Source: a virus
Taxonomy: Duplodnaviria; Caudoviricetes
Reading direction: 5' to 3' (one strand)
Virus record (IMG/VR): IMGVR_UViG_3300025087_000080
Coordinates: 1-56,733 of that record
DNA length: 56,733 nt
The first letter of the stretch is position 1; the number at the start of each line of letters is the position of its first letter. Positions 19,081 to 56,733 of the stretch are shown here, in pieces. The translations under genes were made by a program, and so were the position numbers. Below the pieces are notes generated by a model. The model was not told where the DNA came from and ran no database searches. It was given only the letters and a program-made list of their open reading frames with translations.

Positions 19081-19139
19081 TGTCAAGCATTACTTGACAG
19101 CTCATCCTGCATGGTGTTTACCAACCTTTGCAGGCACTG
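19081..19139. repeat. Direct repeat copy A (partner at 19777..19835)
   Basis: First 41 nt are identical to 19777..19817, the remainder is similar; contains the palindrome TGTCAAG-CATTA-CTTGACA. Confidence 0.9.
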
Positions 19140-19148
19140 TTGTTTGAA

Positions 19149-19448
19149 TCAACCGTAACCGTAACCGTCACCGTAACCGTCACCGTCACCGTCACCGTAA
19201 CCGTAACCGTCACCGTAACCGTCACCGTCACCGTCACCGTCACCGTAACCGGAACCGTAACCGTAACCGGAACCGTAACCGTAACCGTCACCGTCACCGT
19301 CACCGTCACCGTAACCGTCACCGTCACCGTAACCGGAACCGGAACCGTAACCGTCACCGTAACCGTCACCGGAACCGTAACCGTAACCGTCACCGGAACC
19401 GTCACCGTAACCGTCACCGTCACCGTCACCGTCAGAGAGTCTTATCAT
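19149..19448 (-). CDS. Gly-rich (GD/GY/GS)n low-complexity protein
   Basis: Hexamer tandem array; ATG at 19448 overlaps the upstream stop (ATGA), implying translational coupling. Confidence 0.6.
   Translation of the reverse strand: MIRLSDGDGDGDGYGDGSGDGYGYGSGDGYGDGYGSGSGYGDGDGYGDGDGDGDGYGYGSGYGYGSGYGDGDGDGDGYGDGYGYGDGDGDGYGDGYGYG
19152..19433. repeat. Hexanucleotide tandem array (ACCGTA/ACCGTC/ACCGGA)n
   Basis: Directly visible, about 280 bp. Confidence 0.97.
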
Positions 19449-19756
19449 TTTGCACTCCGCCACTCCGGAATCGCGTCGAGATTTTTTACTGCCTCCTCCG
19501 TCATCGGGATAACCTCGATAATCTCTGTTAACAAAACTTGTTTGACCGCGCAGGGGATGCGAGTCTCGCCTCTGATGTTTGTTACTCCCCTCACTGACAG
19601 CTCCGAGAGCGAAGCGGCCCCATTCCAGTGATGAATCCGTTTGGCGTTTGATACCACACCTCCCTTTCCTTCAAGACTCTCGAGTATGCCGTACCATACA
19701 CCCGCGCCGTACGTCCTGACGACGCACATTTTACCAATAAAATCATTTCTGTTCAT
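19445..19756 (-). CDS. Small beta-barrel phage protein (DUF6948-like)
   Basis: 'IGKMCVVRTYGAGVWYG...AKRIHHWNGAASLSEL...GV' motif; start at MNRNDF. Confidence 0.7.
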   Translation of the reverse strand: MNRNDFIGKMCVVRTYGAGVWYGILESLEGKGGVVSNAKRIHHWNGAASLSELSVRGVTNIRGETRIPCAVKQVLLTEIIEVIPMTEEAVKNLDAIPEWRSAK

Positions 19757-19776: not shown

Positions 19777-19835
19777 TGTCAAGCATTACTTGACAGCTCA
19801 TCCTGCATGGTGTTTACTAAATCTCGCAGGCATTG
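19777..19835. repeat. Direct repeat copy B
   Basis: 696 bp from copy A; covers the 3' end of CDS 19779..20048. Confidence 0.9.
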
Positions 19836-20183: not shown

Positions 20184-20828
20184 CTAAAACATTTCCTCTT
20201 GCCTGAGCCGGTCTTCGGCGATTTTAACGTAGTCGGGATTCAGCTCGATCCCGAGGTACTTTCTTCCAAGTTGTTTCGCAGCTACGAGTGTAGTACCTGA
20301 TCCGGCGAAGGGATCAAGAATCAGATCGCCAGGGCGTGAGTATGTGTGAACAATCCATTTCATCAATTCAAGTGGTTTCTGTGTTGGATGATAGCGAGTT
20401 ATTTCTTTTCCTAACAATCCATTGTATTGACAAACTTTAATTTTAACTGAACTCCGCCTTATGTTTGTCCAAACCAATTCGGCATCACTGAATGTTGGCA
20501 TTGTTTGCTGTTTGTCCCACACAATCCAATGGGTACTTTGTGGCAACAAGTCGGCAAAATAATTACCCCCGAAAATTAAAATGGTTTTCCCTATTCGTAA
20601 TATCTCGTCAAAATATATTTTATCTGGACGTTGATTATCCCAATTGTCATCATAGTAGCGGAGTTCTATTTTTTTCTCTTTTTTATGGTTAAATGTTCGT
20701 GCTCCCGTAAGCCCATGACTTCTCTTAATGCCATACGGAGGATCGGTAATAATAGCATCAACGCACCCGTCGGGCAGTTGCTTCATCAGCTCAAGGCAAT
20801 CCCCGCAGAGGATTACGTTCTCAGTCAT
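20184..20828 (-). CDS. Orphan N6-adenine/N4-cytosine DNA methyltransferase (beta class)
   Basis: TDPPY, HPTQKP, LDPFAGSGTT and GIELN motifs. Confidence 0.93.
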   Translation of the reverse strand: MTENVILCGDCLELMKQLPDGCVDAIITDPPYGIKRSHGLTGARTFNHKKEKKIELRYYDDNWDNQRPDKIYFDEILRIGKTILIFGGNYFADLLPQSTHWIVWDKQQTMPTFSDAELVWTNIRRSSVKIKVCQYNGLLGKEITRYHPTQKPLELMKWIVHTYSRPGDLILDPFAGSGTTLVAAKQLGRKYLGIELNPDYVKIAEDRLRQEEMF

Positions 20829-24817: not shown

Positions 24818-25642
24818 TTATTGTAGTAATCGAGCTAATCTTGTAAGCCCGATCCCGCCTCCAAACCGAGGTACCATAGGCAGGGCGAGGTACTGCTCTA
24901 GTTCTCGCTCTACTCTTGCCTCCCCAAACTTCTCAAACAGTAGGTTAGCGTACTCTCCGTCCGATACCGTGTAGAAGTTCTGTCTCATTTGTTCTGGATC
25001 GGTAGAGCGTTCAGCAGATCCTATGGTTTCCATTCCGTTCAGAATCACGTCGCATTTTGCGTAATTTCCGTCTTCATATCTTTTTATGTTCCAAAAGGGG
25101 TGAGACCTTTGCGGGGAGCCTACTAAAAATACAGTACCTCCATAATCTTTCAGGGTCATAGCTTCATGCTCTGCTTCAATAATTGAAGTGTTATATCGAG
25201 TGCATAATTCATTGTAGTATTTTATATGGCGGACAAAACTGTAGGGAAGTTCTAAATCCCATCCTAAAAAGTCAAGAAGATCTGCTTCTAAATGCAACAA
25301 ATCGGATATTGTCCCAAACGATTCAAATTCAAACATAGGGAAGATTAGATCGTGTCTTCCCGCGATAGGGTTTTCTTCGTTCCTGTAACTCGTTGTGATA
25401 CAGAACACTCCTGCTTCATTTTTAGCATTTGTTAGGAGCTCTTGTTCGAGCCACATTTGTCCGGTCTGCGGAAGCGGATAGAGCTGATTTCTGAAATTGA
25501 AAGTAGAGATAGTCTTCGGGTCTTCACAGGTAGCCAAGATGGAAAGGCGAGACTGTGCAGGAACTTCTATGAAGTTGAGTCTGGTGGAGAAAAAAGCTCT
25601 CAGGCTTTTAACTATTTTGTTGTAGGTGAAGATGTCATTCAT
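24818..25642 (-). CDS. Class II (Asp/Asn/Lys-type) aminoacyl-tRNA-synthetase-like protein, catalytic domain only
   Basis: Motif 1 'FF...FIEVP', 'LPQTGQMWLE', motif 2 'SYRNE...RH..IFPMFEFE', 'ETIGSAER', motif 3 'PRFGGGIGLTRL'. About 274 aa, so no N-terminal anticodon-binding OB domain. Confidence 0.85.
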   Translation of the reverse strand: MNDIFTYNKIVKSLRAFFSTRLNFIEVPAQSRLSILATCEDPKTISTFNFRNQLYPLPQTGQMWLEQELLTNAKNEAGVFCITTSYRNEENPIAGRHDLIFPMFEFESFGTISDLLHLEADLLDFLGWDLELPYSFVRHIKYYNELCTRYNTSIIEAEHEAMTLKDYGGTVFLVGSPQRSHPFWNIKRYEDGNYAKCDVILNGMETIGSAERSTDPEQMRQNFYTVSDGEYANLLFEKFGEARVERELEQYLALPMVPRFGGGIGLTRLARLLQ

Positions 25643-26030
25643 CTTAATCCTCTTTATCAAGTGTGGTGGAACGATTGTTCGCCTAAAACTTCGCTACGCT
25701 TTAAGCGAGGCACATAGAAGCGTAGATTGTGTTTAACCTGTCACCTTTTTTTACCCCGCTAAAAAGTATCGCTACAGGGCTTAATTTTAAGTTTCCCTGT
25801 TTAACCCAAGCTCTTCCATTGCCAGATGACGACCCTTCGCTGTCAGTATCGCTATTCCCCGTTCTTGCAAGTCGTTAATCCCGATGCCGCGAGGTGAATA
25901 TAATCAGCGTCTAAATTCGACTGAATGAAAAATCCAGGGATATCAGGCGTAGATAGTTCTTTTGCTACCATCTGCCTCAAAATTGCCCGTTGCGCACATG
26001 ATAGATTAAACATAGTGCTCTCTCCTTCTC

Positions 26031-28510: not shown

Positions 28511-28723
28511 TTAAGCTCCTCCCTTTATCGCTTCGCGCCGCTCGATTATTCCACTCTTCTCGCATGTCCAGCATCGGTTGGTTAATGATCGCCACGTAGC
28601 TGATTCCCCACAACAGACACAAATCCCACTGTTTAAGGCAACGCTGCCGCCTTTGGATAAAATCTTATCCCGAGTTTGTTTGTGTACGGGATTTCTCTTC
28701 AAATGAGTGCTCGCTGTAGGCAT
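28511..28723 (-). CDS. Small Cys-rich protein
   Basis: CVCC and CWTC; start overlaps the RNA ligase stop. Confidence 0.55.
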   Translation of the reverse strand: MPTASTHLKRNPVHKQTRDKILSKGGSVALNSGICVCCGESATWRSLTNRCWTCEKSGIIERREAIKGGA

Positions 28724-29748
28724 TATTTTTCCTTTAGTAAGAAATCGTTATTGAGAACCTTGAAGGATAATCTACCTCTTAAAGTTTGAGAATAGATCTC
28801 AATTTGGGGACGAACCACAATTCCCTCTTGATGATTACTGGAGCTTGGGTATCTTCCCTTCGCTAATTCAAGAAGATCTTCAAGACTATAGCAAAAGGAT
28901 TCGCCACGTTCTATAAGTGGCACAGCATTAAGCGGTAGTGTAGAAGACGAGCTAACATTAGCCGCGTTTATGAAACTATGAAGCTCTTGATAATTGAAGT
29001 ACCTCTGTTCATCTATGCCAAATATATTAAAGATAAACAATTCTGCTGTTTTTAGTTCCAACCTGTTGTTTTGAATCTTCGGCCCACAAATCTCGCCCTG
29101 AATTGCAATGTTTTTATTAAACCTTTTCAACAATTCAATAATCCCGTATCTCCGAGCAATATCAACATACATGTTGTCATCGAACTTCCTTTCAGTAGTA
29201 CGAGAACATACCCCACAATGATCATTCTTTTTATAGAAAGTAGAGGAAGTGCCATCGACCTTCATCGTGATATAATAGGGTAATCCCTTCATCTCGTTAA
29301 GCACTTTAAAACAGGATTGAATTCGGGTTTCGTCCGTCTTGGGAATAAATTCAGGGAATTTTCCAGCAGTATCTCCAAGAGCACACGAGGTTTCTGGTGG
29401 TGCATATTTTGTGATTTGCATAAGAGCTGTAACATCATCTCCGAGCACAAATTGGTTGGGGTAACATACAGAATCCAAAATAGATAGGGGGAAAATAATT
29501 CCCTGAGAAAGAACCCCACGTATTTTTTTTGTCTTGATACGATAGTTGTCTTTTTCTAAAAAAGAATACTGTGGAAGTGCAGGAAGCACACTATCTATCT
29601 CACAAAATACGCAAGAATCTCCAATCTGAAATTCTCCCCTCTTTGCCACTAACCGCCATCCCATAACGGTAACCTGTTCAATGAAATCTGAACCCAATAT
29701 CGGTTGTATATCCGAGATCTGTTGAATTGTTGCCAATTTGCGTTCCAT
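28723..29748 (-). CDS. RNA ligase (Rnl2/DRB0094-like with N-terminal OB-type domain)
   Basis: 'MERKLATIQ...CEIDS..P', 'FP.FIPKTDETRIQ', KVDGTS motif I, QGEICG, EGIVVR, SFKV. Confidence 0.9.
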   Translation of the reverse strand: MERKLATIQQISDIQPILGSDFIEQVTVMGWRLVAKRGEFQIGDSCVFCEIDSVLPALPQYSFLEKDNYRIKTKKIRGVLSQGIIFPLSILDSVCYPNQFVLGDDVTALMQITKYAPPETSCALGDTAGKFPEFIPKTDETRIQSCFKVLNEMKGLPYYITMKVDGTSSTFYKKNDHCGVCSRTTERKFDDNMYVDIARRYGIIELLKRFNKNIAIQGEICGPKIQNNRLELKTAELFIFNIFGIDEQRYFNYQELHSFINAANVSSSSTLPLNAVPLIERGESFCYSLEDLLELAKGRYPSSSNHQEGIVVRPQIEIYSQTLRGRLSFKVLNNDFLLKEK

Positions 29749-33687: not shown

Positions 33688-33918
33688 CTACTCCCTCCCA
33701 TCAATAAATTTTTTGAAACTGTCATACCAGGGGCTCTTTATTCCCACCCCGTAGGTTTTGCCTCCTGTGGTCGGGGAAGCGTGCCCTCGTTCCCACTCGT
33801 AGAGGGTGTGCTTTGCTGGTGGCTGTGTTCCACGGATCACCGCCAGCCGCAAACCCAACAATTTCCTACTCCCGCACAGTAAGCGGGCGTTTTTTACCTG
33901 TTCCGCTTCAATCCTCAT
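33688..33918 (-). CDS. XRE/Cro-like helix-turn-helix protein
   Basis: 'TLYEWERG...P' HTH signature; ATGA coupled to the recombinase. Confidence 0.65.
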   Translation of the reverse strand: MRIEAEQVKNARLLCGSRKLLGLRLAVIRGTQPPAKHTLYEWERGHASPTTGGKTYGVGIKSPWYDSFKKFIDGRE

Positions 33919-34847
33919 ATCAATCCTCCTAACGTGTTGCGCAAGCCTTTAGTCTGCGCGTTATTACTGTCACGGTATTTCATCGTTGTATCGATGTGCT
34001 TGTGCCCTGCATGAATCTGCACCTCTGCGAGCGACAAGCCGCGCTCTGCTGCTATCCTGTCAACCTCTGTGATGGAGGTGTGTCGGATGCCGTGAGGTCT
34101 CAGGTTAATTCCAATCTCTGAGCCATACTGGGACACCATTCTCCAGACAGATGCTCCCGTCATCCGCTGCCCGTATGAATTTGGAGACAGGGAGACGAAC
34201 ACCGCCTCCGCCGTGTCAGGGCTGAGTTTCTTCCACGCCTGGAGAGCTGTGGCTGCGGATTGCGACAGAGGGGTGGTGCTTTTTTCCCTGTGTTTTTTCC
34301 GAGTCACAGCAATTTCTGAGGGATGGATGTTGATCCAGTTGAGGGAGCAAACTTCCTCCCGCCGCAGCCCGAGGTCGAACAGGAGCCTCAGGATTGCATA
34401 ATCCCGAACCCCGCGGACAGTTGCCTGATCCGGCAGGGCAAAGACGTCTCGTAGCTCTCCAATCTCCGGGCCGCGGTTGTCTTTCCGCGGTTCGCTCTGG
34501 ACACCTTTAACAGATAGCCTCCAGGTCGAAACTCCTACCTGGTTAGCGAGATCCATGAGTGAGCGAATCGCCGCCAGCCGCCGGTTGATAACCGAGCTGG
34601 ATGTCCCCGAGTCGATCATGCTGTTGCGGTAGCGCAGAACCAAACCGTTCCCCTCCGCGGATGTGAGACCCAGTAGGGTATCCGCAATTTGCGCGGGGTG
34701 AACCTTGCACCACTCTGCGAACTGTCTGATGTCGCCCTGGTACGCCCGTACGGTTAGAGGGCTCTTGCCTCTGATCCACTCATCCATGAGTGAGGCTTGA
34801 GCCAAGCCCGCCGCTTGCGCTGTTGTAGAGATTAACCCTTTTTCCAT
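33915..34847 (-). CDS. Tyrosine recombinase (XerC/D-integrase family)
   Basis: SAM-like N-domain 'SPLTVRAYQGD'; catalytic residues in GLRREE, HGIRH, GH and TTMKY; GAGGAG SD before ATG 34847. Confidence 0.93.
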   Translation of the reverse strand: MEKGLISTTAQAAGLAQASLMDEWIRGKSPLTVRAYQGDIRQFAEWCKVHPAQIADTLLGLTSAEGNGLVLRYRNSMIDSGTSSSVINRRLAAIRSLMDLANQVGVSTWRLSVKGVQSEPRKDNRGPEIGELRDVFALPDQATVRGVRDYAILRLLFDLGLRREEVCSLNWINIHPSEIAVTRKKHREKSTTPLSQSAATALQAWKKLSPDTAEAVFVSLSPNSYGQRMTGASVWRMVSQYGSEIGINLRPHGIRHTSITEVDRIAAERGLSLAEVQIHAGHKHIDTTMKYRDSNNAQTKGLRNTLGGLI

Positions 34848-34930
34848 CTCCATCTCCTCGGTTTGTTCTGTCAATATATTCCCTCCAGGCTGGACTTTCA
34901 AGCCCCGCTGTCCGTCCTCTGGAGCTATAA

Positions 34931-34960
34931 GACCATTTTCCCGGCGTCAGCAAAATGGTC
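34931..34960. repeat. 30-bp imperfect palindrome, inverted partner of 48124..48153
   Basis: GACCATTTTCCCGGCGTCAGCAAAATGGTC; its reverse complement matches 48124..48153 at 29/30. Confidence 0.9.
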
Positions 34961-34973
34961 TGAATACAAAAGG

Positions 34974-35004
34974 AACCCTCCGATATGCCATCTCGGAGGG
35001 TTTT
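34974..35004. terminator. Hairpin terminator upstream of the recombinase
   Basis: AACCCTCCGA...TCGGAGGGTT flanked by A and T tracts. Confidence 0.7.
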
Positions 35005-35502: not shown

Positions 35503-35943
35503 CTACTCCTCTTCGTAAGGGCGTCCTGTAGGACAGACTGTCCATGGACGCAGGTGGTAATCCGCAACAACCACCTCCCGTTCCTCGCGCCAGAGGGTGA
35601 CGCAGCCAACTGTGAATGCTATGTCGGCAACGTTAACATCCTGCTTGATAACAATTTCACCCCACTTGCGAGCGAACTCGTAAGAAAGAGTCCAACTTGT
35701 CAGGTGCTGAATGGAGACACGGTCAACGGCGACAGGGTGGCCCGCATCAATTTCGCCTCTGTTCACACCGCGCCAGAGGGTGACGCAGCCAACTTTTGTC
35801 GACAACGGGAATAGCCGTTTAAAACCGGCGATCCCCTCCTCAGCGTACAGCTCTAATGCGGGTCTGAGGTTACCGGTCGCCCACGCATAGATGTATCTCA
35901 CGTGTGGCGTGACCTGGATAGGCCATGATTCCCTCGATCTCAT
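35503..35943 (-). CDS. Putative ADP-ribosyltransferase (R-S-E type)
   Basis: 'TLWRG', 'TSWT....FA..W' and 'EEREVVV' in the expected order; start at MRSRES. Confidence 0.6.
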   Translation of the reverse strand: MRSRESWPIQVTPHVRYIYAWATGNLRPALELYAEEGIAGFKRLFPLSTKVGCVTLWRGVNRGEIDAGHPVAVDRVSIQHLTSWTLSYEFARKWGEIVIKQDVNVADIAFTVGCVTLWREEREVVVADYHLRPWTVCPTGRPYEEE

Positions 35944-35969
35944 TTTCCTGCTCCTTTGGTTGTGTTTCA

Positions 35970-35986
35970 GCCGGCACCCGCCGGCT
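35970..35986 (-). repeat. Start-associated hairpin repeat, copy 4
   Basis: AGCCGGCGGGTGCCGGC, 26 nt before ATG 35943. Confidence 0.9.
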
Positions 35987-36029
35987 CCTGTGACTCCCCT
36001 CGCGGGGAGATCCACTCATCTACAGTTTT

Positions 36030-36398
36030 CTATACCACCGTGTACGTGTAAAACATCACTGTAGTTGTGAACTTTATAGGGGCTATGTCAGCCTCATATC
36101 GTTCACATATTTTATTATTAAGCGTAAGTACTAACGCTGTTTCGAGGAGTCTTTTTACCTCCTCTGGATTGTACCCAGTTATACTTAAAGTATTGTCTTC
36201 ATACACGAAGACTTTCGTATCCGTGGAAGACGACCAAGTATCCAACTGTAACGTCATTGGATACTGCTGTTCCGTTGTCTTTATCCAACTAAAAAACTTT
36301 TTTAGCTGGATAACTTCTAACCATTCTTGGTTAACAGGCATACTTGCCTTGACAAGGAATACAACACCCTTCTTGTTTTCATCAAAGTAAAACTTCAT
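36030..36398 (-). CDS. Early hypothetical protein
   Basis: AAGGAG SD, start MKFYF. Confidence 0.6.
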   Translation of the reverse strand: MKFYFDENKKGVVFLVKASMPVNQEWLEVIQLKKFFSWIKTTEQQYPMTLQLDTWSSSTDTKVFVYEDNTLSITGYNPEEVKRLLETALVLTLNNKICERYEADIAPIKFTTTVMFYTYTVV

Positions 36399-36423
36399 TT
36401 TTCCACTCCTTTTTCGGTTCCCC

Positions 36424-36440
36424 GCCGGCACCCGCCGGCT
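36424..36440 (-). repeat. Start-associated hairpin repeat, copy 3
   Basis: Identical 17-mer, 25 nt before ATG 36398. Confidence 0.9.
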
Positions 36441-36445
36441 CTTCG

Positions 36446-36488
36446 CTCCCCGCCGAGGAGTTGAACCTCGGATACACCAAGCGGGGAG
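36446..36488 (-). ncRNA. tRNA-like minihelix (acceptor stem plus T arm only)
   Basis: CTCCCCGC-ttggtgtatc-CGAGG-TTCAACT-CCTCG-GCGGGGAG; no anticodon arm and no CCA. Confidence 0.65.
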
Positions 36489-36497
36489 ATCCGCTCT

Positions 36498-36728
36498 CTA
36501 GAGCTCGTCAGACAGGAAAAACTGCCCGTCAGCAAAGACATAGACTCTATCCTCTGAGTCTTTGATCGATATAAATCTTGAAAAGATCCCGCCGCAAGAA
36601 CAATCAGACATTCCGCATAACTTGTTGTCTGCGCGTTTTATACTCCGAGCCGACATTGTCATCGACTCTGTTGATACCACAACACTCGCGGAAGTGTTGT
36701 GGAAAGTATTTTCAATGGTCAACTTCAT
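36498..36728 (-). CDS. Early hypothetical protein
   Basis: GAGGAG SD; 'N.FHNT...LCGMSDCSCGG' motif. Confidence 0.6.
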   Translation of the reverse strand: MKLTIENTFHNTSASVVVSTESMTMSARSIKRADNKLCGMSDCSCGGIFSRFISIKDSEDRVYVFADGQFFLSDEL

Positions 36729-36751
36729 TTTCATCTCCTCGTTGTTTTTCC

Positions 36752-36768
36752 GCCGGCACCCGCCGGCT
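36752..36768 (-). repeat. Start-associated hairpin repeat, copy 2
   Basis: Identical 17-mer, 23 nt before ATG 36728. Confidence 0.9.
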
Positions 36769-36778
36769 TTAGTTCCCC

Positions 36779-37084
36779 TTAAATGATGTATATTTCCAGG
36801 TCGAAGGCATCCCTTTGAATTATCCACGCAAATTCTTCATTAGAATTTGCTACTTGCTTTGCAAATTCTAATGCTCGGAAGTAGAGCAGCGTCCTAATCG
36901 CGGATAAAGCATTTTCACTCTGGAGAAGATCATAATTCAGGCGTCTCTGTTCCAGTAACCATTTCCAGATGACGTCTTGCATAGCCAATTCCCAAATCCT
37001 TGATTCAAACTGAACTACCTGTGACTCTTTGGCGGAATCTATTCCTACCAAGTTGATGAATACATCTATTTGCCCGCACCACAT
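36779..37084 (-). CDS. Early hypothetical protein
   Basis: AAGGAG SD, start MWCGQ. Confidence 0.55.
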   Translation of the reverse strand: MWCGQIDVFINLVGIDSAKESQVVQFESRIWELAMQDVIWKWLLEQRRLNYDLLQSENALSAIRTLLYFRALEFAKQVANSNEEFAWIIQRDAFDLEIYII

Positions 37085-37113
37085 TTTCCAATCTCCTTTT
37101 TTTCGTTTTCCTC

Positions 37114-37130
37114 GCCGGCATCCGCCGGCT
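37114..37130 (-). repeat. Start-associated hairpin repeat, copy 1
   Basis: AGCCGGCGGATGCCGGC (one change in the loop), at the predicted transcript 5' end. Confidence 0.9.
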
Positions 37131-37139
37131 TGTTGATCC

Positions 37140-37170
37140 AAGATACTCATTAGCATATTGCCTGTCAATA
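37140..37170 (-). promoter_or_regulatory. Early sigma70 promoter with overlapping TATTG-N5-CAATA box
   Basis: TTGACA-17nt-TATCTT. Confidence 0.8.
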
Positions 37171-37172
37171 GC

Positions 37173-37454
37173 CTATCTCTCCTCGAGACTCTCCTCGGCC
37201 TGCGCACCGCCGTCCGCTCCCCGCAGCCTGGTATACCCAGCGATTAGCTGCTGAATAATCGGATCCGCCGCCGCAGGCTCGGAGAAGAGACTCTCCTGGT
37301 GAGCGTTATCCACAGGCAAGAGCCGATAGTACGGATTAAACGCCTCCGCGAGAGCCGCCGCCGTCCGCCTGCTGGGAGACAACTCGTACTCCCGCCGGGC
37401 GAGCCTGAAAGCCTCAATAATAGCCTCCTCAGAGGTTAGGTTCTTAAAGTTCAT
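37173..37454 (-). CDS. Early hypothetical protein containing QESLF
   Basis: Start overlaps the upstream stop. Confidence 0.55.
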   Translation of the reverse strand: MNFKNLTSEEAIIEAFRLARREYELSPSRRTAAALAEAFNPYYRLLPVDNAHQESLFSEPAAADPIIQQLIAGYTRLRGADGGAQAEESLEER

Positions 37455-38852: not shown

Positions 38853-38893
38853 TTCCTACTCCTCTTAGGTTGTTGTTGAACTACTGTTGAACC

Positions 38894-38924
38894 AAGATAC
38901 TCTCTGCTATATTGCGAGTCAATA
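38894..38924 (-). promoter_or_regulatory. Early sigma70 promoter with TATTG-N5-CAATA box
   Basis: TTGACT-17nt-TATCTT. Confidence 0.8.
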
Positions 38925-38952
38925 CCTACTCTGTCTCCTCGAGAGACCAGGA

Positions 38953-39297: not shown

Positions 39298-39342
39298 TTT
39301 CCATCTCCTCGGTTGTTGGGTTAGCCTCTCTAACCCTGATGT

Positions 39343-39373
39343 AAGGTACTGCTCTGTGTATTGCGAGTCAATA
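39343..39373 (-). promoter_or_regulatory. First early sigma70 promoter with TATTG-N5-CAATA box
   Basis: TTGACT-17nt-TACCTT. Confidence 0.75.
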
Positions 39374-39379
39374 CCCTGT

Positions 39380-40000
39380 CTCTCATCGAGACTCTCATCG
39401 AGACTCTCCTCGAGAGACCAGCCCCACCAGCGTTACTAATTTAGACTCTGTCTTACCTTAGACTCTGTCTAAACTAAATCTATACTATTTAGTAAGGATT
39501 TATCAGCACGCCCCCTATATCTTGATATGTAGATGAAGATATCAAGATATCGGGCTATGGTCGCTGCGGCAAGGTGTGGCGATTTTGATACAGTGTGGCA
39601 ATTTTGATACAGTGTAGTGAAACGCTACTCTGACGCCACTTCCAGGGATTGTGTAAAGTAATTCCCGAATTGTTTTACACTCTCTTTATATGAGGTACGC
39701 GTGCGCGTGCGTGCGATTCATCATTGTTTTGTAGGAGCGATAACGTTCATTATATCTCGTTAGATCGCTATCCGTATCCAGCTAAATTATTGTAAATTAT
39801 ACACTTGCGCGGTCGTGCAGCAGGTACCACGCACCGAGTAGCATAATGCTACAATGTAGCAGAACGATACTCGTTTTGAGTAGCATAACACTACAATGTA
39901 GCGGAACGCTACTCGACCGGGGGTATGCCGGCGACCACCGCCGGTCACCTACGTGAGGTATATCAACCTTGATCTCTCCGGACATTCCTCATGTGGGGTT
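39380..40000. repeat. Non-coding repeat- and palindrome-dense region
   Basis: Three 12-mers CTCTC(A/C)TCGAGA; TTAGACTCTGTCT twice; 12-10-12 palindrome 39517..39550; 19-bp tandem 39574..39611; palindrome 39651..39680; GTAGC-N5-GCTAC-type boxes 39838..39912. Confidence 0.85.
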
Positions 40001-40471
40001 GTATTATATGGGTGGATGTTGTGGGGATTGGGTTTTTATTAGTAAGTCAGGGTTATGTGTGTGGGGCATTTTCAGTAAGTGGTTTTATTTTGAAAGTGAA
40101 CGGTGTTATTTTAGGATTATGTTTATTTTTCAACAGTTTAGGATAGTGCTCTTAATATAGGATTCACAACGATCACTTTGATCACTTTGGGTATGTATTA
40201 TACTGATAGTGAATGATGAGAGTTGAAAGTGAATGGTTATCTTACGGGAGGGAGTGTAGCTACGACAAGGGTTTGTTGGTTGATAGTGAACGAAGTGATC
40301 GTTGTGAATGGTATTAAGGAAAGTGTGAATTAACCGTTCACTTTGGCATTCACTTTGGATTTTCATTTTAGTTGACGCGCGGAGGCCGAGACCTGTAGGG
40401 CGCATGTAGTGTTCCGCGCCTGGAAGGTCTTGGCAAGAGAGTTGTTGACTTTTCTTTAGGGAGGGGGGGTA

Positions 40472-56574: not shown

Positions 56575-56733
56575 CAAAACAAACTTCCACGCATGACAGG
56601 GTCTCACGGCTCTGTCATGCAGGATTTTTCAGGAGATAAAATTCATGGCAAGACTTTCTAGTTTAACCAATGAGTCAGGAGTATCGCAACTCATTAGCGA
56701 GATCTCGGCAACTGCGGTATTCGACTTAGGTGA
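56575..56733. repeat. Terminal overlap, copy 2
   Basis: Matches 1..159 with 3 mismatches. Confidence 0.95.

Follow-up and report, generated by a model that had tools for sequence, protein, structure and literature searches.

A repeated hairpin leader and a tRNA-Gln relic in an early operon of an uncultured temperate groundwater phage: a candidate 5' untranslated module and point of gene exchange

RESULTS

A hairpin leader repeated before four consecutive genes

The current study deals with an early operon of an uncultured temperate groundwater phage that is represented by the IMG/VR virus record IMGVR_UViG_3300025087_000080; the entire record of 56,733 nucleotides (nt) was analyzed and is referred to as the window. 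Between positions 37,170 and 35,503, four consecutive small genes are each preceded by the same short hairpin, and apparent remnants of a tRNA gene lie before the third and the fourth of them. The array, the promoters, the terminator, and the integrase discussed below are all located on the minus strand. In the direction of transcription, the array comprises the following features (lengths in base pairs [bp] and amino acids [aa]).

37168-37140, minus: promoter P3, TTGACA-17-TATCTT, with 10 of 12 consensus matches
37114-37130, minus: hairpin copy 1, A-GCCGGC-GGAT-GCCGGC, at about +4 to +6 of the P3 transcript
36779-37084, minus: gene 1, 101 aa, ORFan
36752-36768, minus: hairpin copy 2, beginning 10 nt past the stop codon of gene 1
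36498-36728, minus: gene 2, 76 aa, with the better-spaced ATG at 36728 and a further in-frame ATG at 36734
36446-36488, minus: tRNA-Gln-derived minihelix, recognized by its fold and by alignment to a phage tRNA-Gln
36424-36440, minus: hairpin copy 3, 6 nt past the discriminator of the tRNA relic
36030-36398, minus: gene 3, 122 aa, ORFan
35994-36009, minus: acceptor-stem-like hairpin CTCCCC-GCGA-GGGGAG, in the spacer before gene 4
35969-35986, minus: hairpin copy 4, whose stem of 7 bp contains an A-T pair
35503-35943, minus: gene 4, 146 aa, probable R-S-ExE mono-ADP-ribosyltransferase

The repeat GCCGGCGGRTGCCGGC is present in four copies in the window, all on the minus strand (37129-37114, 36767-36752, 36439-36424, and 35985-35970), and no extra copy appeared when up to two mismatches were permitted. 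One hundred dinucleotide shuffles contained a mean of 0.06 copies, and none of them reached four. All copies follow the form A-GCCGGC-GGRT-GCCGGC, with a conserved 5' A and a loop of either GGAT or GGGT, and the hairpins account for 8 of the 13 GCCGGC sites of the window. Each is predicted to fold into a 6-bp stem composed entirely of G:C pairs and closed by a 4-nt loop (-13.1 kcal/mol), which in copy 4 is extended by an A-U pair to 7 bp (-14.5 kcal/mol); folding together with the leader and the first codons gave closing-pair probabilities of 0.93 to 0.998. At all four genes the hairpin is followed by an A-rich spacer, GGAG, and (G)AAAATG, and the distance from hairpin to ATG is 29, 23, 25, and 26 nt for genes 1, 2, 3, and 4, respectively. 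It is the hairpin that represents the specific feature of these leaders, because the (G)AAAATG context is also found at other starts of the phage (repeat family D5). An earlier interpretation made by a model from the letters alone, here called the sequence-only reading, had proposed a four-fold hairpin with an A-rich Shine-Dalgarno (SD) leader, 23 to 29 nt before the ATG. This anatomy was confirmed, with four copies found versus 0.06 in the shuffles, and the hairpin array is real and non-random.

Among the four hairpins, 0 or 1 of 16 positions differ, whereas the adjoining leaders are identical in 17 of 26 to 22 of 30 aligned columns and the upstream flanks are mutually unrelated. The divergence of leaders and flanks beside identical stems indicates that the stem is kept while its surroundings drift. 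With respect to hairpins in general, the minus (early) strand and the plus strand contain 38 perfect hairpins each, and an SD sequence with the start of an open reading frame (ORF) lies within the next 45 nt in 8 and 1 of these, respectively. A perfect 10-bp hairpin is furthermore located at 38085-38060 on the minus strand, in an 87-nt spacer and about 27 nt before the start of a 192-aa ORF.

No U-tract lies 3' of any of the four hairpins on the sense strand, where A/G-rich sequence is found instead, and a terminator scan listed two of the copies on the antisense strand only, with weak T runs. This bears on the possibility that the hairpins are attenuators or terminators which step expression down along the operon, as has been proposed for the stem-loops of the promoter-early stem-loop (PeSL) cassettes of T4-type phages. 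The hairpins do lie between cistrons, and PeSL stem-loops are G/C-rich parts of the same kind of cassette, one of which cut lacZ expression like a strong terminator according to the account in PMC2839356. Nevertheless, attenuation is very unlikely here given the missing U-tract, a stem of only 6 bp, a canonical terminator that already ends the operon, and the position of copy 1, at which termination at +5 would render its own promoter pointless. Sites for RNase III were rejected because the stems are too short. Lambda-type nut sites were likewise set aside, as the four copies occupy 1.2 kb with no terminators between them and no boxA was seen by eye.

Unrelated hairpins behind paralogous promoters

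Promoter P3 is one of three paralogous repeats of a 64-nt family (D3; 37134-37197, 38888-38951, and 39337-39400), which according to their alignment have in common an upstream TCTCGAGGAGAG-type element, the -35 region, GCAATA, and GAGTA(T/C)CTT. The features associated with the two other repeats are the following.

39371-39343, minus: promoter P1, TTGACT-17-TACCTT, paralogous repeat
39336-39318, minus: P1 hairpin, GGGTTAG-AGAGG-CTAACCC, with a 7-bp stem unrelated to the GCCGGC hairpin
38894-38922, minus: promoter P2, TTGACT-17-TATCTT, paralogous repeat with no hairpin 3' of it

The stem of hairpin copy 1 begins 10 nt past the -10 hexamer of P3, i.e., at about +4 to +6. The proposed location of the first hairpin at the predicted +1 of a consensus promoter thus holds, with the stem 4 to 6 nt from the P3 start. 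The P1 hairpin begins 7 nt past the -10 hexamer, at about +1, and is followed by an A-rich SD leader like those of the array. The occurrence of unrelated hairpins at the same spot of P1 and P3 argues for a role of 5'-end structure and not of one particular sequence. Judged by sequence comparison, this pair is the nearest thing to covariation in the present data and points to such a structural role.

The comparison of the promoters is also relevant for the idea of a sequence-specific site, at which a protein would bind either the RNA hairpin or, as two GCCGGC half-sites 10 bp apart, the DNA, and would thereby co-control the four genes. The strict conservation of stem sequence and 5' A would be expected of such a site, as would the concentration of the GCCGGC sites of the window in the hairpins, and copy 1 overlaps +5 to +20 of P3, the usual position of an operator. 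Against this, copies 2 to 4 lack a promoter on which an operator could act, the loop is not constant (GGAT or GGGT, with TT inserted in another run), and the hairpin of P1 is a different one. Since moreover no RNA-binding or regulator family was detected among the neighboring ORFs searched, we consider a protein site quite unlikely.

Upstream of P1 lies a large non-coding region (39420-40130) with the repeat families D14, D18, and D20 and GAGTAGC...GCTACTC palindromes, which may be an immunity, operator, or origin region. It contains a related hairpin, CCGGCG-GTGGT-CGCCGG, at 39944-39928. Near 39380, the copy number of a 12-nt unit differs between sequencing runs.

Remnants of a tRNA-Gln gene in the spacers

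The minihelix upstream of hairpin 3 starts 10 nt past the stop codon of gene 2 and ends 6 nt before the hairpin. It consists of an acceptor stem of 7 to 8 bp, a 10-nt linker with the start of a D arm, a 5-bp T stem with the loop TTCAACT, and a G discriminator, and in isolation its minimum-energy fold is the acceptor/T-arm minihelix (-21.9 kcal/mol). At 36467-36457 it carries the T-arm motif GGTTCRANYCC, which has been used for finding the t-elements of plant mitochondria (PMC1920247). This motif alone is not rare, with 2 occurrences in the window versus 0.47 expected. A T arm with an abutting 7-bp acceptor was found once in the window, compared to a mean of 0.05 in 300 shuffles, 15 of which had one.

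A search with the 3' 23-mer of the minihelix (two degenerate positions) retrieved seven IMG/VR contigs, in which it is part of tRNA-Gln(CTG) genes (5/7) or a tRNA-Asn gene (1/7), or lies where no tRNA was called (1/7). Aligned to one phage tRNA-Gln(CTG), the minihelix is identical at 39 of 42 positions, with a single 31-nt gap that extends from the D loop to the variable region. On the strength of this alignment and of the presence of the 23-mer in tRNA genes, the minihelix descends from a gene of the tRNA-Gln(CUG) type that lost about 31 internal bases. A functional tRNA gene was rejected: the D and anticodon arms are deleted in the alignment, and neither ARAGORN, which found no tRNA gene in the window, nor the Rfam tRNA model called one. 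The latter had no match at the gathering score, nor at E values of up to 10 in this stretch. Rfam as a whole returned nothing at the gathering score and chance-level rows only at E values of up to 10, among them the best row for the minihelix, the mascRNA model (18.8 bits versus a threshold of 42.5; E = 0.93). Exact matches to a 24-mer from the 3' half were absent from a collection of one genome per prokaryote species, and blastn of the relic against phages gave only matches with an E value of 0.4. The relic was also considered as the phage attachment site (attP) and rejected, as the contig branch point described below lies elsewhere and the relic has both 5' and 3' parts of a tRNA.

The short hairpin before gene 4 (36009-35994) shares the 5' flank GGATCTCCCCGC with the minihelix and is, by this sequence criterion, a further reduced homologue of the tRNA relic in which only an acceptor-like helix is left. 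Fold and shared flank consequently support the sequence-only reading in its claim of a tRNA minihelix before hairpin 3 and a shortened version before hairpin 4. In an unrelated 54.6-kb IMG/VR contig (L082, 9633-9690), the 23-mer directly follows a stop codon, with no tRNA called, and is succeeded by a second hairpin; this site may represent a further tRNA relic or else part of an att site.

Variation between samples and possible exchange of genes

Comparative data were obtained from the Logan contigs of four DNA runs, which were aligned at 80% likeness. In one run, TT is inserted into the loop of hairpin 3. A second run shows three substitutions within the 5-nt linker that separates the relic from this hairpin, and in a third, a 1052-nt contig differs by 2 substitutions and 4 gap positions, all of them within the 25-nt leader of hairpin 3. 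No change was listed in any stem of hairpins 1 to 3 or in the tRNA relic. The variants of the runs agree with the comparison within the genome, namely, that the stems are constant and the surroundings vary. Absence of U from the leader was discarded as a conserved feature because a variant leader in another run gains T's.

Signs of gene exchange were found as well. One short contig covers the relic (3' part only), hairpin 3, and the leader; the 72 nt that it contains from the ATG on differ from the window, in which a probe of 18 nt from this replaced stretch had no real match. Two joints link the promoter repeats, 37177>38934 (side of 22 nt) and 37182>39398 (side of 34 nt), each in a single contig, and at 37131 a loose end of 12 nt agrees with the sequence behind P2, as expected of a reciprocal junction.

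These variants also bear on another view, according to which the repeats are recombination linkers without any RNA function of their own. They would be short homologies that homologous recombination has left behind and uses for inserting and swapping small accessory genes; their hairpin shape would be fortuitous, and the tRNA pieces would represent decaying pseudogenes. Identity of the copies without covariation would fit this view, and so would the contig with another gene behind the same leader, the confinement of all differences of the 1052-nt contig to one leader in the manner of a conversion patch, and the ORFan status of genes 1 and 3. Short repeats do give deletions in this phage population, as seen at the promoter joints and in the gene 4 allele P0003. 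A plain scar, however, would not have to form a perfect palindrome of -13 kcal/mol or keep a like distance from every start. An unrelated hairpin at the same place behind P1, a leader that has diverged beside an unchanged stem, and the lack of any listed hairpin-to-hairpin joint also speak against it, and linkers devoid of an RNA function appear rather doubtful.

Relatives of the phage were sought by several routes. A scan of IMG/VR for the hairpin identified 71 contigs, all of them with single copies, unrelated, and mostly in G+C-rich contexts, and the combination of hairpin, SD, and AAAATG had no match in JGI metagenome contigs. Protein-guided scans of IMG/VR with the integrase, DnaN, an alignment of gene 4, and the 192-aa ORF retrieved no relative, nor did a gene 4 scan of metagenome contigs, and blastn of 4.6 kb against isolated phages returned no match.

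The end of the operon and the neighboring integrase

The downstream part of the locus has the following composition.

35499-35320 (59 aa) and 35289-35008 (93 aa), minus: two further small ORFs of the same operon, without hairpin modules
34968-35002, minus: intrinsic terminator, a 10-bp stem followed by the U-rich run UUCCUUUUGUAUU, -17.5 kcal/mol
34930-34961, no strand assigned: candidate attP core, the 10-bp inverted repeat AGACCATTTT-12-AAAATGGTCT beside the integrase gene
33915-34901, minus: tyrosine integrase of the ordinary phage/Xer type, according to Pfam, PHROGs, and NCBIfam

The terminator at 35002-34968 is of the canonical intrinsic type and ends the operon. At 34930-34963, contigs from three runs depart from the window on both sides into dissimilar sequence, which is the same in two of the three runs. 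An attP with its prophage junctions would look like this, and the site is a probable attP core. A search for the attP core in host genomes (attB), conducted in one genome per species, gave no exact match. The integrase matched Pfam Phage_integrase and SAM_1 and the PHROGs integrase family. NCBIfam returned eight families, all below the cut-off and all of the Xer, XerA, or invertase type, with no IntI-specific (integron-integrase) model among them. Its gene is co-oriented with the array and located downstream, separated from it by the two ORFs, the terminator, and the probable attP.

A tyrosine recombinase gene thus lies near the end of the array as had been noted, at 34901-33915 and 0.6 to 1 kb off. 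The sequence-only reading had gone further and suggested an integron-like array, in which this recombinase would move the genes as cassettes at the hairpins. A repeated palindrome beside each small gene and the different gene content behind leader 3 could be reconciled with such a system, as could the distance of the recombinase. The attC sites of integrons are imperfect palindromes of about 60 to 140 nt, which mark the 3' end of every cassette and contain conserved core sites. The integron integrase adjoins the array in divergent orientation, with attI and the cassette promoter beside it. The repeat studied here, unlike attC, is a perfect palindrome of 16 to 17 nt on the 5' side of each ORF, 23 to 29 nt before the ATG, and the integrase, which fits Xer and phage-integrase models only, is co-oriented and lies behind the terminator and a probable attP with prophage-type junctions. 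An integron is accordingly contradicted on three defining features (integrase type, attC, and integrase placement) and can for practical purposes be dismissed. The accompanying idea that the repeats are exchange points does not survive in its integron form, but for regulatory modules as points of homologous exchange it has some support from the population data. The integron model is therefore rejected in favor of PeSL-like homologous shuffling.

Gene products and characteristics of the phage

Genes 1 to 3 were called from ORF and SD only. Neither these genes nor the neighboring small ORFs belong to a Pfam, PHROG, NCBIfam, or PADLOC family, for genes 1 and 3 a search of 5.8 billion proteins gave no homologue beyond their own clusters, and the protein Atlas contained no match for gene 3 or the 192-aa ORF. 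The four genes had been described as unrelated, in agreement with the absence of mutual similarity of their products in blastp at E values of up to 10.

For gene 4, seven matches were found in 1.84 billion representative proteins. In an alignment of six sequences, R58, T82-S83-W84, and E121/E123 are invariant. The Pfam DRAT family scored 19.9 bits, below its cut-off of 25 bits, and 69.6 bits for a distant relative of 2079 aa. The structural model reached a pLDDT of 75.9, compared to a useless 32 for an earlier model from three sequences. The Foldseek rows listed for the PDB were mostly ADP-ribosyltransferases, the best with an E value of 0.016 and none at 0.001 or better, and sequence searches of the PDB gave no match. 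Based on the invariant motifs, the DRAT scores, and the Foldseek rows, gene 4 probably encodes a small R-S-ExE ADP-ribosyltransferase, for which a function as an early host-modifying or counter-defense enzyme is plausible. Gene 4 has an internal direct repeat of about 25 nt (35587-35611 and 35758-35782) that encodes VGCVTLWR twice. An allele of 85 aa in the protein database (P0003) lacks exactly the segment between these repeats, including the catalytic Arg and Ser motifs.

The window is a full IMG/VR virus record of the linear class with a CheckV completeness of 59%. Its ends (1-159 and 56575-56733) form a 159-nt direct repeat with 98% identity (family D2), on account of which the record may be a complete circular or terminally redundant genome and not a 59% fragment. 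Near-identical DNA was found only in groundwater and soil metagenome runs, and the terminase shares no more than about 25% identity with its counterparts in isolated phages. The window encodes DnaB, DnaN, a YqaJ-type recombinase, an RNA ligase, and the tyrosine integrase; the source is an uncultured temperate groundwater phage that is not of the T4 type.

Further genes on the minus strand include a 280-aa protein with a class II aminoacyl-tRNA synthetase core (24818-25660; Pfam tRNA-synt_2, E = 1.1e-14), which LysS, EpmA, and AsnA models match faintly and which showed no anticodon-binding domain, an ATP-dependent RNA ligase of the DRB0094 family above the NCBIfam cut-off (28723-29748), and a protein with an N6/N4 DNA methyltransferase domain (20184-20828). 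At 19098-19512, 12-nt units are repeated in a long tandem array, reported in 23 registers, which is flanked by a 59-nt direct repeat (19081-19139 and 19777-19835) and carries a spurious match to a microRNA model.

DISCUSSION

The interpretation of the array starts from the observed anatomy of the leaders, the tRNA ancestry of the intervening elements, the conservation of the stems amid variable surroundings, and the variant junctions in other samples, and from these we infer the function and every step at the RNA level. In our preferred reading, the leader is a standard module of the 5' untranslated region, in which a stabilizer hairpin, either at the 5' end or between cistrons, is combined with processing sites made of tRNA relics, and which additionally serves as a PeSL-like recombination point. 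This reading is tentative, and we put its probability at roughly 45%. The excess of hairpin copies over shuffled sequence, the A/G-rich sequence in place of a U-tract, the T-arm motif of the relic, and the constancy of the stems both within the genome and between runs all speak for it.

According to this proposal, the stretch would be the promoter-proximal part of one of three paralogous early transcription units of the sigma70 type, which would run from P3 through genes 1 to 4 and the two small ORFs to the intrinsic terminator, with attP and the integrase gene beyond. The module occupies about 45 nt per gene and consists of the 6-bp G:C hairpin, the A-rich spacer, GGAG, and (G)AAAAUG. Stem-loops at the 5' end and 5' roadblocks are described as established mRNA stabilizers for single genes (PMC3997798, whose references include Emory 1992, Bouvet 1992, and Bricker 1999). 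Hairpin 1, a few bases from the primary 5' end, may accordingly hinder 5'-end-dependent decay (by RppH and RNase E, or by RNase J in other hosts). Hairpins 2 to 4 would be intercistronic barriers that turn into 5'-proximal caps once the RNA has been cut in the single-stranded linker upstream, and the tRNA-derived helices in spacers 3 and 4 might shield the preceding cistron at its 3' end. The minihelix might in addition attract RNase P together with RNase Z or RNase E, in which case the mRNA of the next gene would begin about 6 nt before its hairpin. That a polycistronic RNA is cut at tRNA-like sites into hairpin-capped mRNAs, as the sequence-only reading had also suggested, is plausible and receives indirect support from the different hairpin at the +1 position of P1 and from the tRNA-Gln descent of the minihelix, whose acceptor/T-arm stack is intact. 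A second role of the repeated modules and promoters, for which the variant junctions provide part of the evidence, would be that of substrates of homologous exchange, by which small genes are swapped, deleted, or duplicated in the manner of PeSL cassettes.

A number of observations weigh against this proposal. The promoter paralogue P2 has no hairpin, and the promoter scan found no promoter at hairpin copies 2 to 4, which would become 5'-terminal only by an unproven cut. A cut at the discriminator would leave 6 unpaired bases before hairpin 3, which is at the edge of protection in Escherichia coli. When the downstream hairpin is included in the folding, an alternative structure is 3.5 kcal/mol better than minihelix plus hairpin. 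The composite of T arm and acceptor reaches only a p value of about 0.05 against shuffles, and the minihelix has no encoded CCA and could be a decaying pseudogene. The evidence for junctions is thin, consisting of single contigs of low depth, one with a side of 22 nt, aligned at 80% likeness, and no joint between two hairpin copies was listed in the contigs. Furthermore, none of the runs listed as containing the stretch is on record as RNA, and no related genome was found that could provide covariation. The complete constancy of the stems would be explained just as well by a protein that binds a specific sequence or by recent gene conversion.

The most far-reaching version of the processing idea is that a gutted tRNA-Gln and a copy of its acceptor stem were kept as operon punctuation, at which RNase P, Z, or E of the host would cut and thereby generate hairpin-capped monocistronic mRNAs. 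The array would then be a phage counterpart of the t-elements, with a module that also allows gene swaps. In this complete form we regard the idea as unlikely. If true, it would be the first phage tRNA relic used as an mRNA processing signal, as far as a limited literature search shows, in which no such case was found. A module that works as proposed would represent a compact and portable set of parts, namely, a hairpin, an unstructured leader, an SD sequence, and an optional tRNA-derived cutting site, which provides each gene of an operon with a protected 5' end. Outside the T4-type phages, the region shows how regulatory repeats can act both as expression signals and as exchange points of ORFan accessory genes, to which a probable ADP-ribosyltransferase belongs here. 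Should only the recombination reading hold, the locus would exemplify ordinary mosaic phage evolution.

Several known systems resemble individual aspects of the array. In the early operon of phage T7, one transcript carries several genes for host takeover, and RNase III sites leave protective hairpins on the products. One early transcript with small genes and structured intercistronic sites is a common property, but the T7 sites are long irregular RNase III duplexes and not identical repeats, and the 6-bp hairpins of the current study are far too short for this enzyme. A closer resemblance to the hairpin itself is offered by the leaders of ompA and papA and by the 5' roadblocks of Bacillus, in which a stable hairpin near the 5' end precedes an unstructured ribosome-binding region (PMC3997798). 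The papA mRNA that arises from processing of papBA is, in the same account, an earlier example of a hairpin that an intercistronic cut exposes. These are single elements of single genes, whereas here one sequence occurs four times running in a phage operon.

For the tRNA-derived part, a parallel is provided by the t-elements of plant mitochondria (Forner et al. 2007, PMC1920247). They are described as degenerate tRNA structures with an acceptor stem and a GGTTCRANYCC T arm, which separate coding regions and at which mRNA 3' and 5' ends are generated by RNase P and RNase Z, and bare acceptor-like stem-loops have been proposed to serve in the same way (PMC1920247), which would correspond to the short hairpin before gene 4. 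The differences are that cleavage is assumed here, that the present case is a bacterial virus with one element and a reduced copy, and that a dedicated 5' hairpin follows. A tRNA-like analogue is also known in the mascRNA of MALAT1, the best Rfam match of the relic, albeit far below the threshold.

The sequence-only reading had assumed that no described phage system combines such parts. This was too strong, since the PeSL cassettes of T4-type phages combine similar ones and are the closest described system (Arbiol et al. 2010, PMC2839356; Comeau et al. 2014, PMC4122927). As described there, an early promoter, a stem-loop, an SD sequence, and a start codon precede ORFans, and the cassettes mediate shuffling (PMC2839356). 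Indels, replacements, and mini-circles arise when PeSL copies recombine. The array of the groundwater phage agrees with this description in its sigma70-like early promoter, the stable G/C-rich stem-loop, the SD, and the start before small ORFans of a plastic early region. In one subclass of PeSLs the stem-loop closely follows the -10 box, as is the case at P1 and P3 of this phage. The full composite of promoter, stem-loop, SD, and start is present at P1 and P3, while copies 2 to 4 lack the promoter and P2 lacks the hairpin. Promoter and hairpin are thus uncoupled here, with three promoters and four hairpins that share one place, and the hairpins are identical and few, compared to about 50 PeSLs reported for a T4-type genome. 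The phage is temperate and not T4-type, its stem-loops are read as stabilizers and not as terminators, and the available descriptions of PeSLs contain no tRNA-derived parts. The copies of PeSLs are described as points of homologous exchange, and the deletion and reciprocal junctions between the promoter repeats, albeit weak, suggest a comparable role in the groundwater phage.

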